A DNA stretch of 64,000 bases from an uncultured Nitrososphaeraceae archaeon (lineage in GTDB: Archaea > Thermoproteota > Nitrososphaeria > Nitrososphaerales > Nitrososphaeraceae), in the NCBI GenBank assembly GCA_963825865.1, contig CAWGVG010000003.1:64001-128000 (forward strand). Reading direction: 5' to 3'. A program made the translations under genes and the position numbers. This document shows, piece by piece, positions 41,221 through 48,936 of this stretch. The stretch's first letter is position 1, and each line of letters opens with the position of its first letter. The notes under the pieces were generated by a model. The model saw nothing but the letters and a program-made list of their open reading frames with translations. It was not told where the DNA came from and made no database searches.

Positions 41221-43571
41221 ATGGACCCGAAAATTGAGGCAAATCATGGAATCCTATGTTGAGAGACCCTAAAAAGTGGGAAGCGAAGATATTTACGAAT
41301 TTTCAACAATACAGAAACGTGCTTTTGTGATTGATTCGCCACCACCCTACCCCTCTGGGCGACCTTGGCATATTGGGGCTGGGCTCACTACGCACAAATA
41401 GACATGATCGCTCGGTTTGCAAGAATGCAGGATATAATGTTATTTTTCCTATAGGCATAGATAGAAATGGTTTGCCAGTCGAAATTTATACAGAAAAGAA
41501 ACATAAAATCCGAATGCGACAGATGAAGAGGGAAGCGTTCCTTGATCTCTGCAGAGTTGCTCTAGATGACCTGGAAACTGAAATGATTCAGATAATGAAA
41601 AATATGGGTTTGAGTTGCAACTTCAAACAATATTACCGTACCGATTCTGATGAATTTCGGGCTTTAACTCAGAACACATTTATTGATTTATGGAAACGTG
41701 ATCTTGTATACCTGGCAAATAGACCAAACAACTATTGTTCTGACTGCGGTACAACGATTGCTGATGCAGAAATCATCTATGAGGACTTACCTACAAAGCT
41801 TGTTTACATGAATTTTAAGGTAAGGAAACTGATGAGAAAATTGTAATTGCGTCTACCAGGCCTGAGTTATTGTTTGCGTGTCAGTGTATAATTGTAAATC
41901 CCAAAGACGGGCGCTACCTACGATACAAGGAAAACATGTCAGATTCCTATATTCGGAAGGGAGGTGAAGATTTTACCGCATCATTCAGCAAAACCAGAAT
42001 TTGGTTCGGGTGTAGTGATGGTATGCAGTTACGGCGATCAAAATGATGTCCAGCTATTTCGAGAACTAGGTTTGAAAGAAATTGTCGCCATCAATGAGAA
42101 TGGAATTACTACTCCAGCAGCTGGTACCATATTCTAATCTAACGCTAAAAGAAGCAAGGGCTAAAATAATTGAGGATTTGAATACTGCTGGCCTTATCGA
42201 TAGAGTTGAAGATATTGTGCACAGGACTCCATTATGCGAACGGAGTAAAACCCCCATTGAAATTATACCAATGGAAGATTACTATCTAAAACAACTTAAG
42301 TACATTCCAAAATTAAAAGAACTCGCAAGAAAATTACATTCTATCCTCCAATGCATAAACAGATTTTAATTAATTGGCTAAATTCTGTATCAATTGATTG
42401 GCCGATATCAAGACGACGCTTTTACGGCACAGAAATTCCAATCTGGTATTGTAATAACTGTCAAACCCCAAACCTTCCAGAATCAACCATCAGACAAATA
42501 CTATAGGCCATGGAAGGAAAAACCCCCATTTGAAAAATGCATGCAATGCGTCTGTACCGAATTCACAGGTGAGGATAGAATTTTTGACACTTGGATGGAT
42601 TCGAGTATTACCCCACTCTTCATTTCAAAATACAAACGAGGATCAGAAATTATACAACCATCTGTACCCTACAAAAATACGACCCCAGGCCAAAGATATC
42701 ATTAGAACTTGGCTCTACTATAGAATGCTACGTTGTTTCCAGCTGACTGATAAAGTGCCATGGTCAAGTGCGTGGATTATGGGATATGGCGTAGATGAGA
42801 AGGGCGAAAAGATGAGCAAAAGTAAAGGAAATGTTATTGATCCTTTTCCAATCATACATCATTATGGTGCAGATGCTTTCCGATTCTGGTCTGCAAGCGA
42901 AGGTAGTTTGGGCATGATTTCCGGTGTTCCGAGCAGAGAATCGCCGGTTCACAGAAATTCTTATCAAAATTGTGGAATATTGGTAGGTTTATTTCATCGT
43001 TTGATATTATAGCAGAGACTCCTGCGCAACTTTTTGCAACAGACGAGTGGATTATCTCAGAACTGTCAATACTGATAGAGGATTGTAAAAAGGGCTATAA
43101 TGATTTCAATTTTTTTGTACCATCAAATGCAATTAGAGAGTTTACTCGGAATCTATTTGCATCACATTATATAGAGATGGTAAAAGGTCGTGTGTAGGTT
43201 CAACAGATGAATCTGGACATAAGTCAGCCATATTTACCTTGCACAAATGTCTATCCACAATTTTATTATTACTTGCGCCAATTTGTCCCTTTATTACAGA
43301 AGAATTGTGGACAACAATTTATTCTGCCAAGAGTATCCATTTACAGCACGTACCTCAATCACAAATGAACTATAATGAGTCTACAAAACATACTAAACAG
43401 ATTATGGATTTCAACTCGATTGTGTGGAACAAGAAAAAAGAGACTATTTCAAAGGGAACTGGAAAAGCACTTTCTCTGAAAGACTCTATAGATATCGCTG
43501 TTCCTGCTGATTTGGAGCCATTTAAAGAAGATCTTCAGATTATGCATAATTTGAAAAGTGAAAGTAGATGA
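41221..43571 (+). CDS. valS: Valine--tRNA ligase, many frameshifts
   Basis: PPPYPSGRPWHIG, DRNGLP, TRPELL, FGSGVVM, DWPISR, DTWMDSS, QAKDIIRTW, KMSKSKGNV and PFITEELW. Confidence 0.93.
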
Positions 43572-43730: not shown

Positions 43731-44120
43731 TCATTGAGTCAAGTTTGCTCTATTTAAGAGTTCCAGCGTATCCTCAGCGATATCTATTGCGGTGTGTGAA
43801 TCAACATTCGGTTCCAAAGTAACTAAAAATATTTTTTTATGCAGGTAATACGTAATTATAGAAATCTTTTCACGCTCTACATATGCAAACCTTGCTTTAC
43901 CCATACTGTCATCAAATCTTTGCCTCATTGATTTTCGAAGAGCCGTTTGAGCTAAATATAATTCCTCGTTGGTCTGATCTACAACTGAATCAATGCCGTT
44001 ACGCATGCCTCCAGCAATTAGTAATCCTGTATCATCTATGACTCCTGCATAACGTATATCATCGTGTAAAGCAAAGATTGCTTCACATAGTTTTTCGTAA
44101 TCCACAATATAAGTAAGCAA
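43731..44120 (-). CDS. Roadblock/profilin-like thaumarchaeal protein (DUF6659-like)
   Basis: IRYAGVID..G.LIAGGMR..FD..MG..YVEREK pattern. Confidence 0.72.
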   Translation of the reverse strand: MLTYIVDYEKLCEAIFALHDDIRYAGVIDDTGLLIAGGMRNGIDSVVDQTNEELYLAQTALRKSMRQRFDDSMGKARFAYVEREKISIITYYLHKKIFLVTLEPNVDSHTAIDIAEDTLELLNRANLTQ

Positions 44121-44220
44121 AATCTATCTATTGAATGTTGAGTCAATGTTTGCTTATTATAGATTATAACTTGTTAATTCTTTTTTCATCCAACATATTA
44201 AAGTTAGAAATTGACTCTAA

Positions 44221-45355
44221 GGTATGTGGGAGAGGGAGATAAAAGTAAATGTTATTTGAAATAAGTAAAGTGAGAATAAATGATTATTGTAAGAGGAGAG
44301 GTGTATGTAGGAAGAATGGTATATAGCCAATATAAAAGTATGAATAAGAGAATGATAGAAAGCAATATATGTAATAGTTAGAACTATAGGTAAGTGATAT
44401 TGTTAGAATAATTAGATAAGAAGATTAATGATATGATTGATAGAAGTAGATGTTAATTGTAGAGAATAGTAAAAAGATTAAGAGAAGAAGGTATAAAAAG
44501 TATAAGAATTGAATGTAAAAAGATATATAATATTTTAAAAAAAACAAGTATAGAGATAGAGAAAAAGGATAATGAAAGTAAGAAAAGTTAAGGGTTTTGG
44601 TTATGAATAGTTAGTAAATATAGTTAATGAGAGTTTGAATGTAGAATATAAATATAATAGGTATATTAGTAAGAAAATAGTTTAGAATATTATAGTTAGA
44701 TAAGAATTGGTTGATGTAGAGAAAAAGATGGTAAAAGAATAAGAATTATTTGAGAGAGATAAGAATGATGAATTAATATAGGTTGATATTATAAGATTTA
44801 ATGGATTAATAATATTAACAATGGAAGAAGAATATTATAGAAAGTTATGGGCTAAAAGACAGGATAATGAAAGAGATGATAAAGTGATAGAGACTATGAA
44901 GAAAATATATGGATAGAAATAAGATTATTTTTTGATTGATAATGGTAGTTAATTCAGTAGAAGAAATTATGTTATGAAAAGATATTGTAAATAGTATATG
45001 AGTGAGAAATATATCTGGATATAGGTATATCACAATTAAATAATGGGTAAACTATTAAAAGCTTAGAAAGGATAGAAAAGATTAATTATCGAAAGAACTA
45101 GGATGGAGTAAAGATTAAAAGTAGGTAGATGAAAGTATATCAATATATATTGAATAAGTTTAAAAATGGTAAGAAAATATTAAATAATGGTTAATATAAA
45201 GAAGAAAGATAATAAGAAAAGGAGATAATGAATGTTATAAAAGAATAGTAAAAGTAATTAAGATTGATAAAATAAGAAAAATAAAAGTGAAGTAGTGGGA
45301 TAAAAAGTGTAAAGGTAAAAGGGGAGAGGGAGAGCAGGGAGAAATGAAAAAATAC
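44221..45355 (+). mobile_element. Degenerate IS481-like insertion sequence in a cytosine-depleted tract
   Basis: About 20 C in 44221-45360 by manual count, with G abundant; contains a decayed DDE transposase; 12-bp direct repeat GGGAGAGGGAGA at 44228 and 45322. Confidence 0.75.
44340..45295 (+). pseudogene. IS481/rve-family transposase pseudogene with coding-strand C lost
   Basis: Manual translation: HTH SRC*L*RIVKRLREEGI, then FERDKNDELI*VDI, TMEEEYYRK, LIDNGS*F and YHN*IMGK. These match R.E..P.EL.Q.D, DDHSR, TDNG.QF and HPQT.GK in order and spacing once C>T/A is reverted. Confidence 0.8.
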
Positions 45356-45449
45356 AGGAAGACAGTCTCGAGGTAGGATAGAGTATATCCTGTTCTATAA
45401 TAAGAGATAAGGCAGAGGTCTTAAATTATATTTAACAATATTTAGCACG

Positions 45450-46347
45450 TCAAAATTTAACTATATTACGGTACATTTGATATCTTTCCTGAACATCTTC
45501 GTTATTAATCGCAAGCAATTTTCTTACTCCGAAATCTTCTACAGCAAATGCACCCATAACATTCCCATAAATCATTGCCTCTTTCATCCTATTGGCATTT
45601 GTGCCATTTTGCTTAGCGATATATCCTATGAACCCTCCAGCAAAAGAATCTCCTGCACCCGTAGGATCCATAATTTCTTCCAAAGGGTACGCTGGAGCTG
45701 GAAAAATCGTATCACTAGTGAGGAGCAGACGCACCATGCTCGCCTTTCTTGATTATTGCAAACTGTGGTCCCCAAGACATTATCATTTTTGCACATTTGA
45801 TTAAGTTGTTAGTCTTGCATAAAAGCCGAGCCTCTTCATCATTAATCACCACTCCATTAACCTTGCTCATCATTTTTATAATATCCTCGCGTTTGTTCAA
45901 GATCCAATATTCTATAGTATCACATACTATGAGTTTTGGATTTGAAAAGTATTCGAGTATCTTCAGGTTTTGGATTGGGTCATTGTTTGCAAGGTACACA
46001 TATTCAGAATTGACATATTCGTCAGGGATGATAGGTTCGAAATTTGCTATTACATTTAACTCAGTTTTATTGGAAATTCTATGGGAAAGGTCATATTCAA
46101 ACGAAGAATCATAATGGAATGTTTTATCCCCTTGTTTGGTAATAATGCCTCTGGTATCAAGTCGGTTGTCAAGGATCTTTCGATATTCAGATGGAAAATC
46201 TGAACCTACAACCCCGACTATAGAAGTATCTGTAAATAGGCTAGAGGAAAGTGAAGCATACGTGGCTGCCCCTCCCATAATCTTTGTTTCGGTCTTAAAA
46301 GGAGTTCGAGTTGTATCTAGTGCAATAGTTCCAAAGACTGTTAACAT
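45450..46347 (-). CDS. PfkB-family carbohydrate/nucleoside kinase, frameshifted near 45725
   Basis: MGGAATYA, VGVVGSDF, INDEEA, KKGEHG and DPTGAGDSFAGG. Confidence 0.92.
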
Positions 46348-46443
46348 AGTTGAATTAATTTTCTCTATGAATAATAAATGCTTGCCAAACCTATTTTATC
46401 AGCATGATTAAATAACTACTAAGAGAAGACTGCTATTGAATTA

Positions 46444-47007
46444 ATGCAATTAATAGTGGCAATAACTGGAGGTTCAGGTGTCGTATATGGGATTAAAACA
46501 CTTGAGATCCTTAGGGATCTAAAAATGGAAACCCACCTCATTATCAGTGAATGGGGCGAGAAGAACATTAAGATTGAAACTGACAAGTCCATTGATTATG
46601 TCAAATCCCTTGCCACAAAATTCTACGACAAGGATAACATGGCTGCTGCAATTTCAAGTGGTTCTTTTAAGACAGACGGTATGATAGTCGTTCCATGTAG
46701 CATGAAAACATTATCAAGTATTGCAAATGGCTATGATGAGAATCTAATTTCAAGGGCAGCAGGAGTATGCATTAAAGAATCTCGAAAAATAGTTATTGTT
46801 CCAAGAGAAACTCCTCTTTCAAAGATTCATCTTCAAAATATGATAAAGCTGGTTGAAATAGGGGTTATTGTATTGCCAGCGATGCCTGGTTTTTATCACA
46901 AACCAAAAACTATAGATGATTTAATAATTCATATTGTAGGAAAGATTTTGGATCAATTTGGGATTGAACACCATACTTTCAAAAGATGGGGAGGAGGAAA
47001 TTATTGA
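46444..47007 (+). CDS. ubiX: Flavin prenyltransferase
   Basis: AITGGSG, ISSGSF, PCSMKTL, PRETPL and PAMPGFY. Confidence 0.94.
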   Translation: MQLIVAITGGSGVVYGIKTLEILRDLKMETHLIISEWGEKNIKIETDKSIDYVKSLATKFYDKDNMAAAISSGSFKTDGMIVVPCSMKTLSSIANGYDENLISRAAGVCIKESRKIVIVPRETPLSKIHLQNMIKLVEIGVIVLPAMPGFYHKPKTIDDLIIHIVGKILDQFGIEHHTFKRWGGGNY

Positions 47008-47712
47008 TTATACCGAGTATTAGTGCTATTTTTGAAGCAAGTCATTTGGAACATCGACTATTATACAAATGGGGTTTCAGTCCTAAAGTAAAGAATGAGA
47101 TTTGTTAATGCTACATCAAAGGAAGAAAAAGGCAAATTTAGAAAAAAGCTAAAAGGATAATCTCGCATATACCTAAAGGATTCACTGTCGCTGTTGCTGC
47201 TGATTAATCCATCTTTACAATACTCATTGAGAAGCCCCCATTGCAAGTTAACCATATGTGAACAAGATATAATCAACCGAATGAGATGGTAACGTATAAT
47301 ATTTTGCAATCTCGAAACAAAAGAATTATGTCATTTGAGTGAAAATATTGTAATGCAAACCTGACGTAGCATCTTTAGCCAAAATAATTCTAAAGTCTCT
47401 TTCGCTTGCCTCATATATGGTTGTTCTCGGGCAGTTAGGAAAGTTACAACCGTATACTACGACCGTCTAACATTCAGCTCATGTAAATGCTTTTCCAATA
47501 ACGTATTGTAAAATGCTCCCCACCTGGACTTGTACATTATCCATTCCATATGACCGATCTGTTGAAGGTGACCAGAAAGGAGCAGGTCTGAATCCAATCT
47601 ATTGACAGAAGAGGGCTTGAGCTCTCGTGGATGGCCTAATGAGCTGGTGATTCTGTCATTTTTGCCAGTAACCCTGTTGAGGTTGGGTCTGCATTTGCTC
47701 TGCAATTTGCTT

Positions 47713-47904
47713 TTACTGTTGCTCCAATTGTAGAAACTGGTTACACAGAACGTTAAGCGCTACCTTGGTTAAAGCTGCAGGCTTGGGCGATTTTATCTGG
47801 CCCTGGGCAAATAATTTTTTAGCGATATCCTCTATAACGGGGTAATCCTCATTCCTTACCCGCATAGATATGATGACTCCATGTAGTTGTTTTTCTTTAG
47901 ACAA
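47713..47904 (-). CDS. Small ribbon-helix-helix-like DNA-binding protein
   Basis: Alternating beta strand VIISMRV followed by two amphipathic helices (EDYPVIEDIAKKL, PAALTKVAL). Confidence 0.5.
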   Translation of the reverse strand: MSKEKQLHGVIISMRVRNEDYPVIEDIAKKLFAQGQIKSPKPAALTKVALNVLCNQFLQLEQQ

Positions 47905-47956
47905 TATAATACTTATACAGATATTTTATATATAAAAATCTATCGAAAAATGTTTC

Positions 47957-48223
47957 TGGAAAAAACTGCAAAAGGCCTTGGAATGAAGTGCATTCCAATG
48001 GAAAAGCCCTTGGAAAACTTTTGTCTGGAAAAATTAATGACATTTACCTCATGTTACCTTGTCACTTATTCCAAAGCGTTTTACACGTCTTTTTCCACAC
48101 TTTTCCAATGGAAAAAATACTTTTCCACGAGTTTGTATTACAAATGTAAACAATTGTAAACAACGGGAGTAAATTGTAAACAATTGTATACAGCTGTAAA
48201 CAGAATCAGTCTACATGTTTACA
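47957..48223. promoter_or_regulatory. Array of short iterated motifs (TGGAAAA/TTTTCCA x8; TGTAAACA-like x6)
   Basis: TGGAAAA at 47957, 47999, 48011, 48026, 48109; TTTTCCA at 48091, 48101, 48121; TGTAAACA at 48145, 48155, 48175, 48195; TGTATACA at 48185; inverted TGTTTACA at 48216. Confidence 0.65.
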
Positions 48224-48936
48224 ATAGCAAAAGCAGAAAAAAAAGAAAGTGCTTTTGCCATTATTCTTTCAAGCAAATGCTATTGTAGATGGCATATTTG
48301 TTGTATGCTGTTCCTTTCCGCTCGACATCCTTCAAGCACCGCTCCCAATTTTTAAAACTCCATTTCTTTCGGCATTTTTTAGGGAATCACCTTAATCTTT
48401 TATTTTCTTGGAATTGTTTGAGCTGGAGATATTTATGATTCACAAGAATAAAAAATAATAATAAAATAAATAACAATCTACTATCTAGAGAATTTAATTT
48501 ATAGGAAATTCTAATCTACTAAAAAAGGAAAAGCGACGTCTTTAGGCTCGGCTATTATATAAGACATAATTTGGGTTTACCGCCTAGAATAGAGATTTAT
48601 TACAACAGTATCTAAACGTAGTTTATAAAGTAAAATTTTCATACCAAATATGAACTATCGATATCACATTCCAACCTAAGAAGATCGTTGATATCATAGT
48701 ATCATTCTCCTTCAGAAGATGCAGCATCCATAGTCTTTACGATTCCCTGAAGGTGTTTCTCCATCATCTTCCCCTTTTTTGTAGATACTGGCTAGAATAT
48801 ACTACTTCTTTGGAGGATTTATTTTTACAATATAATATACCAAAAAAAACCACTTAATTCTTTCTATCCTACAATAATACTTATTATCAAAACAACTTGC
48901 CAGTCCTTTTTTTGCACATAATGACGGTTATTTTAC

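Follow-up and report, generated by a model that had tools for sequence, protein, structure and literature searches.

The window analysed here, a stretch of 64,000 nt, corresponds to C3:64001-128000 (contig CAWGVG010000003.1) in the assembly of an uncultured Nitrososphaeraceae archaeon (GCA_963825865.1; 62 contigs, 4.98 Mb, 82% complete). Its plus strand carries at positions 44221-45355 a copy of an IS481-like insertion sequence (IS) that is almost free of cytosine. The original prediction, made from the letters of this stretch, had described a transposase gene with about 20 C in roughly 1140 nt and abundant G, and had proposed an archaeal transposon-inactivation system similar to repeat-induced point mutation (RIP) or to the action of APOBEC enzymes. 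The composition was borne out by our count: these 1135 nt hold 547 A, 316 T, 252 G and 20 C, where about 200 C would be expected. Given a genome-wide C frequency of 0.178, a count this low (20 or fewer) has a binomial probability of 8.5e-68. Purines (A+G) make up 70% of the plus strand of the tract, and the longest runs free of C measure 160, 273 and 193 nt. GC skew reaches 0.64-1.00 across the 200-nt windows starting at 44200-45200 and is negative on either side; the flanks are nearly identical to those of a second allele. A scan for further C-free windows, which the prediction had proposed for Nitrososphaerales genomes, was run on this genome. Both in the 64-kb window and across all 62 contigs, 44221-45355 is the sole place with 12 or fewer C per 300 nt and the sole non-repetitive stretch with a GC skew above 0.6. 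The remaining windows of extreme composition are tandem-repeat coding sequence, and no second non-repetitive window stripped of C or G was found in the 4.98 Mb.

The family assignment of the element rests on an intact allele, since the stripped copy alone matched no Pfam family in any of the three forward frames; with the NCBIfam IS481 model it reached only E 0.0019. A BLAST search of the tract against its own genome identified this second copy, 83% identical, on contig C50, which over all of its 19,179 nt is an allelic version of C3:95346-114483, with a difference between the two contigs that ranges from 0 to about 24% per 500-nt bin. On C50 the site is occupied by the same element, with a normal C content. 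Its 1093 nt (hence an IS481-like element of about 1.09 kb) are enclosed by a perfect direct repeat of 17 nt, located at positions 1448-1464 and 2558-2574 of L002, the C50 allele (spacing 1110 nt). Eight inverted pairs were reported in L002:1430-2600, none of them terminal, and by eye ACATGTG is present at both ends. The intact allele encodes a protein of 264 amino acids (aa) with a helix-turn-helix (HTH) and an rve/DDE core, which matched Pfam HTH_32 (E 1.1e-6), Pfam rve (E 1.5e-7; 32.1 bits, cut-off 32.6) and the NCBIfam IS481 model (transpos_IS481; E 2e-33, model positions 26-274 of 284). The latter score of 116.1 bits lies below the curated equivalog cut-off of 224 bits, so that the element is a distant member of the IS481 family and not an equivalog. 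Upstream of the transposase, a 50-aa frame at L002:1521-1673 lies in another reading frame and overlaps the transposase start; either a transposase arranged in two frames or a further indel error may lie behind this.

The stripped copy matches the 264-aa protein in two parts, C3:108433-108600 with residues 1-56 (63% identity; one TAG and two TAA) and C3:108515-109099 with residues 29-222 (64% identity; ten TAG and six TAA). Together with the domain matches of the C50 allele, this confirms the collinear HTH plus DDE transposase that had been translated by hand from the stripped letters, as well as its IS481-type integrase core. The accompanying claim that all in-frame stops between 44581 and 45075 are TAA or TAG, none TGA, held inside both protein matches (11 TAG, 8 TAA, no TGA) but not for the three forward frames read straight through, which contain 46, 51 and 50 stops, TGA among them. 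In length the stripped body falls short of the intact allele by 16 nt, and multi-base gaps garble both of its ends. The left copy of the direct repeat consists of A, G and T only and for this reason cannot tell whether the stripping extends into the repeat. The coordinates of all features are compiled in the table.

Table. Features at the insertion site, in positions of the window.
Feature	Position	Strand	Evidence and remarks
Left direct-repeat copy	44225..44240	+	ATGTGGGAGAGGGAGAG in the intact allele; aligned to C50
C-stripped body of the IS481-like element	44241..45320	+	Alignment to C50; composition
Degenerate transposase frames, HTH part followed by DDE/rve core	44433..45099	+	Matches to the 264-aa protein; stops and frame slips
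Right direct-repeat copy, first bases altered	45321..45334	+	Alignment; first retained C at 45335
DUF6659 protein, left neighbour, normal C content	43734..44120	-	PF20364, E 1e-10
PfkB-family sugar kinase, right neighbour, in two frames	45453..46347	-	PfkB matched on both pieces

The substitution spectrum was obtained by aligning the stripped copy to the C50 allele, with the latter as the reference. Only 18 of the 173 C of the C50 allele were kept; 72 were read as T, 72 as A and 5 as G, and 6 fell into gaps. The other three bases were largely retained, with 212 of 225 G kept (10 changed to A, 3 in gaps), 421 of 428 A (5 to G, 2 to T) and 236 of 263 T (17 to A, 3 to G, 7 in gaps). At aligned positions C was changed in 149 of 167 cases and G in 10 of 222 (Fisher P 5e-73), and the tract is bounded by the element. 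The process had been predicted to be strand-specific and confined to the locus, with C>T and C>A and no matching loss of G, and in these respects the alignment agrees. A symmetric spectrum with G>A as common as C>T, named beforehand as an argument against the prediction, was not seen (G>A 10, C>T 72).

The replacing base varies with the base that follows. The 84 CpA sites were changed to T in 55 and to A in 20 cases, and A was found at 15 of 17 CpG sites; A also prevailed at CpT (A 23, T 11) and at CpC (A 14, T 5). Template-dislocation misincorporation, that is, copying of the neighbouring base, was considered and rejected, the observed pattern being the opposite (CpA to TpA, CpT to ApT). Changes are not limited to C: among 906 bases other than C, 37 were altered, with A as the new base in 27 cases and C in none, and at the right end of the element pyrimidine runs have become runs of A. 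These 37 changes did not cluster beside C in the manner of a k-mer effect (11 within 1 nt of a C, 30% expected, P = 1.0). Gaps are frequent as well, with 13 events in 44241-45322 (15 with both junctions), or 12.0 per kb; in the shared flanks they are roughly five- to tenfold sparser, at 1.0-2.9 per kb. Codon position had no effect on the changes of C (34/38, 35/41 and 42/46, which is even), and the non-C changes were spread as 5, 4 and 3 over the three positions; since the changes ignore the codon position, neither elapsed time nor selection has left a trace. The flanks differ from C50 at one of about 140 positions on the left and two of about 90 on the right, compared with about 186 substitutions inside the element. 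Nearly identical flanks and the missing effect of codon position together imply that the changes arose in one recent event, or that none took place.

A segment of 3.6 kb that includes the locus was partly represented in 19 soil and rhizosphere sequencing runs from 10 studies; the share of its words did not exceed 0.43 in any of these runs, although the flanks alone account for about 70% of the words. Four runs from four studies (Logan contigs, all from other samples) were compared with the stretch at 80% likeness. In all four, the listed stripped positions read C at full depth, as in a normal element, and the stripped letters occurred in no listed piece of these four soil metagenome runs; uncovered parts of the stretch in run X3 were not counted as absence. 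Contigs in three of the four runs join position 44239 to 45334 and represent the empty site, with flanks nearly identical to the window. The insertion is therefore polymorphic in the population. In run X1 the normal element had a depth of 74 compared with about 7 in the flanks, an approximately tenfold excess, from which it follows that the element is multi-copy in those soil communities. Other arrangements were also observed at this site: in a variant present in runs X15 and X2, window positions 44104-45452 give way to 462 other letters, and in the contigs L036 and L037 from JGI metagenomes, which belong to a related species (80-92% identity), the same flanks enclose about 210 nt. The intergenic region around 44104-45452 is a rearrangement hotspot.

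Relatives of the transposase in other genomes have a normal composition. At 23 loci in other Nitrososphaerales and Nitrosocosmicus genomes the C fraction was 0.143-0.173, and a family search of 238 genomes gave matches in 12, from which 30 loci were fetched, with only the window's own being C-depleted. No stripped relative was thus found among the 23 loci of other genomes or among the 29 non-self loci of the 238-genome search, and several of the normally called related copies come from long-read assemblies. Since no related locus is stripped, any such system would have acted once. The same genome also contains at least 12 intact transposase genes of a distant family. Two decayed relatives of normal composition were noted in other genomes (G233:C113:14537-15334 and G060:C340:12867-13613; L086 and L079), with 11 and 14 stops of all three kinds, which is ordinary decay of the element.

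The genes around the tract include, besides the two neighbours in the table, a flavoprotein, a class I tRNA synthetase and an XPB-type helicase; none of these genes points to a targeting system. The prediction had proposed a search for co-occurring deaminases, methyltransferases and Argonautes. Neither a C5 DNA methylase nor a Piwi protein was found in this 82%-complete genome. PF00383, the one deaminase family covered by the search, gave one match, a 175-aa frame of the ordinary CMP/dCMP-deaminase family on contig C28, far from the locus. N6/N4 DNA methyltransferases are represented by 12 matches to PF01555, five of which span nearly the whole domain.

The quality of the assembly is relevant for what follows. 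The genes for the class I tRNA synthetase and the PfkB kinase are both split into several frames. For the kinase, extra bases at 45727-45729 separate frames of 95 and 210 aa; the short-read contigs of runs X15, X1 and X2 have one base fewer at 45728/45729 and C50 likewise lacks the extra bases, so the split is an assembly indel and not a pseudogene. Single-base indels between C3 and C50 fall in homopolymers. The sequence at dozens of contig ends recurs on other contigs with 95-99% identity and many gaps, and since whole small contigs are duplicated at this identity as well, the 4.98 Mb are inflated by haplotigs and overlaps. Duplicated contigs were noted for C43/C56 (9.9 kb), C28/C61 (9.5 kb) and C20/C22 (8.8 kb). 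A run of 111 A at C15:196548-196658 takes the place of about 230 nt of complex sequence on the allelic contig C60 and has the look of a poly(A) artefact at read level that the consensus retained. A second run of 34 A was seen at C15:192841-192874, at the other edge of the stretch allelic to C60. Gap events amount to 9.1-12.0 per kb in two haplotype-specific stretches versus 1.0-2.9 per kb in stretches of low divergence. Base-specific loss was not found in any of 25 other haplotig pairs of at least 2.5 kb. The assembly is noisy and behaves like thinly covered long-read metagenome work that keeps read-level artefacts in its haplotype-specific parts.

The tRNA-synthetase gene at 41256-43238 of the window differs by 15-20% between C3 and C50 while its surroundings are nearly identical, and its frame is broken at least six times in C3. 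It was considered as a second bad stretch and rejected, because the changes favour the third codon position (254, 92 and 53 at positions 3, 1 and 2) with normal C, which is the mark of natural allelic divergence; this allele is naturally diverged and has probably recombined. Differences to the right of the element were considered as a possible trace of a bad read and set aside. Between C3 and C50 there are 20 substitutions in 46700-48700, of which 14 are of the type C>A or C>G; the reciprocal G>T or G>C changes do not occur, and either contig may be in error; at position 46769 the letter of C3 gives the Cys found in most homologues, and both contigs have broken frames. Among 37 loci of JGI metagenome contigs, the best three were L036 and L037 from the related species and L071 (98.6%, covering only 45393-46599), and none of these three reaches 46700-48700.

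Taking these results together, we consider the stripped letters to be an unpolished misread of one or a few long reads of the same strand and not a heritable sequence, with a probability of roughly 0.68; the tract is most likely not a real genome feature. Underlying the tract is an ordinary polymorphic insertion of the IS481-like element of about 1.09 kb with its 17-nt direct repeat; on this haplotype it would be represented by a single long read, or by very few of the same strand, in which cytosines were called as A or T. Reads of the empty site would end at the ends of the element and reads of the normal element would fit C50 better, so that the misread stretch would stay in the consensus with no other reads to polish it. 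The error tract would end at the ends of the element, with clean flanks, because the polishing support ends there. This boundary argument draws on the general behaviour of assemblers and polishers. At the signal level, the cause may be a pure failure of basecalling or modified or damaged cytosines on that molecule. A misread is favoured over an enzyme because C>T equals C>A, because other bases drift to A and because gaps are dense. Published precedents exist: DNA modification causes systematic strand-specific mismatches on one strand only in nanopore R10.4.1 data (PMC11610603), and TTAGGG is called as TTAAAA in nanopore data owing to similar current profiles (PMC9414165). Of the original prediction, the candidate of a misread by the basecaller and the low-quality-read artefact that it had named as its own refutation come closest to what the evidence favours; there is no sign that a modification, should one be present, is directed at the element.

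Several observations weigh against a misread. The ends of the tract deviate from those of the element by no more than about 24 nt (left) and about 12 nt (right), and biology would explain such a fit equally well. The loss is strongly base-specific (A kept at 421/428, G at 212/225 and T at 236/263 positions), which is better accounted for by a chemical difference at C or by true substitution, given that a global signal fault would affect all k-mers. Nor were the reads of this haplotype bad in general, as the tRNA-synthetase allele 1 kb to the left has normal C and natural divergence. The precedents cover methylation motifs or tandem repeats and not 1.1 kb of unique sequence. The stripped form is not widespread, but its absence from the source sample is not implied by runs of other samples; the data used for comparison come from such samples and not from the source reads, and both the platform and the read depth are inferred.

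We regard it as unlikely that a real hypermutation or modified cytosines, taken together, account for the tract. A one-step hypermutation in one lineage or a single cell, in which the plus strand was resynthesised or damaged, nearly every C replaced and the result fixed on the chromosome, is in our estimate distinctly improbable. Conceivable routes are an error-prone single-strand synthesis during copy-out transposition, with no deoxycytidine triphosphate available or with damaged guanines in the template, and deamination followed by abasic-site bypass on a displaced strand. The coincidence of the tract with the element, the strand specificity (C changed at 149/167 against G at 10/222, Fisher P 5e-73) and the collinear alignment with most other bases kept all fit such an event, and so do the dependence on the next base (CpA to T 55 and A 20, CpG to A in 15/17) and the absence of any change to C among the 37 non-C changes, as would be expected were C not incorporable. 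Yet an equal yield of C>A and C>T at about 90% of the sites is not the work of any enzyme we know of, some T and G also turn into A, T runs into A runs, and gaps are dense. Moreover, the stripped form is seen in 0/4 runs and in none of 53 related loci, and it is a single case in a genome that has at least 12 intact transposase genes of a distant family, one ordinary CMP/dCMP-deaminase-family gene elsewhere and, as far as this 82%-complete genome shows, neither a Piwi protein nor a C5-methylase. With C>A equal to C>T (72 each), the drift of other bases to A, one instance in 4.98 Mb, none in the 53 related loci and only the normal letters in independent metagenomes, the prediction of a RIP- or APOBEC-like inactivation of transposons in archaea is not supported.

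Real chemistry with wrong letters, meaning a modification or lesion on the cytosines of that strand, or of the entire molecule read on one strand, which basecalling rendered as A or T, appears to us very improbable. Such a modification could be an epigenetic silencing directed at the element. It could also extend over a long new strand, for instance one made during viral infection of the cell from a substituted deoxycytidine pool, and show up only at sites that were left unpolished. Base specificity and the dependence on the next base suit a neural basecaller that meets altered C signals, modification-induced errors on one strand have been described for nanopore R10.4.1 (PMC11610603), and the genome offers the 12 PF01555 matches to N6/N4 methyltransferases, five of them near full-domain. 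However, known prokaryotic methylation is bound to motifs and does not cover every C, and no C5-methylase was found in the genome; only the boundaries of the tract tie a modification to the element, and these are explained by the polishing argument too. The sibling allele on C50 and the 53 related copies were also called normally, several of the latter from long-read assemblies. The third candidate of the prediction, exaptation of a dead element that selection reshaped into a purine-rich, C-free structural or RNA element, has next to no chance of being correct: it draws on composition alone (A+G 70% of the plus strand), whereas the nearly identical flanks leave no time for about 186 independent substitutions, the changes are indifferent to codon position, and no second copy or relative of such composition was found in the 4.98 Mb or at related loci. 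The flanks and the missing codon-position effect exclude it.

An unpolished misread, as preferred here, carries a caution for the use of such data. Where genomes from noisy long-read metagenomes are used as species representatives, they can contain base-specific misreads on the kilobase scale, which can sit exactly at polymorphic insertions, and composition scans bring them to the surface as apparent new biology. Regardless of the stripped letters, the locus shows that an IS481-like element is active and polymorphic in soil ammonia-oxidising archaea, with filled sites, empty sites and a roughly tenfold excess of element depth across several soils. That a single event confined to the element rewrote or marked about 90% of the cytosines of one strand in an IS481-like element of a soil Nitrososphaerales archaeon is, in our judgement, quite unlikely, and an archaeal defence system as proposed is not supported. 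The combination of C>A and C>T that such an erasure would have produced is not the outcome of any described deaminase, RIP or diversity-generating retroelement (DGR) system, and the erasure might be linked to the stage of copy-out transposition at which a single strand is synthesised. Were the stripped letters genuine, they would represent the first transposon-bounded, strand-specific erasure of cytosines in archaea, and with it a novel form of genome defence or of mutagenic transposition. In the literature searched, as far as it was accessible, there was no report of C-specific stripping of unique sequence or of IS-bounded hypermutation in archaea.

A comparison with known systems leads to the same preference. 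The element resembles the IS481 family in its DDE/rve plus HTH protein, its length of about 1.09 kb, the flanking direct repeats and the empty site elsewhere; it differs by its score (116 bits, below the cut-off of 224 bits), by a direct repeat of 17 nt, which is long for this family, by the lack of a terminal inverted repeat among the eight pairs and by the 50-aa frame upstream of the transposase. Hypermutation or kataegis by APOBEC/AID shares with the tract a strand-coordinated, clustered loss of C and the change of CpA to TpA, here at 55 of 84 CpA sites. APOBEC/AID enzymes yield transitions, or C>G through REV1. In contrast, half of the changes in the tract are C>A (of 173 C, 72 each were replaced by T and by A, and 5 by G), about 90% of the sites are affected, and the action was not restricted to cytosines (37 of the 906 other bases differ, and 13 gap events fall within 1.08 kb); we know of no enzyme that gives C>A and C>T in equal measure at about 90% of sites. 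There is also no candidate enzyme nearby and no second target as a repeatedly acting deaminase would leave, with one locus in 4.98 Mb and 0/23 plus 0/29 related loci. RIP changes C to T and G to A on both strands of duplicated DNA. As in fungal RIP, we find a transposon copy full of stops, many of them created at CpA. Unlike in RIP, one strand is affected (C changed at 149/167, G kept at 212/225), transversions equal transitions, and the second copy is allelic on a haplotig and not a paralogue. The adenine-specific changes that a DGR introduces between template and variable repeat are likewise absent, A being kept at 421/428 positions.

Compared with the nanopore errors described in PMC9414165 and PMC11610603, the tract is unusual in extent: the published cases concern tandem repeats or short methylation motifs and are mostly C>T or G>A, whereas here 1.1 kb of unique sequence lost about 90% of its C equally to A and T. 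The likeness lies in the restriction to one strand, the dominance of substitutions in a collinear alignment, the shift towards A and the absence from data of other platforms. Two features expected of a misread are present at this locus and in this assembly: the stripped letters are absent from orthogonal data in 4/4 runs (Logan contigs of other samples), and haplotype-specific stretches hold other artefacts, namely the poly(A) run of 111 nt and gaps at 9.1-12.0 per kb.

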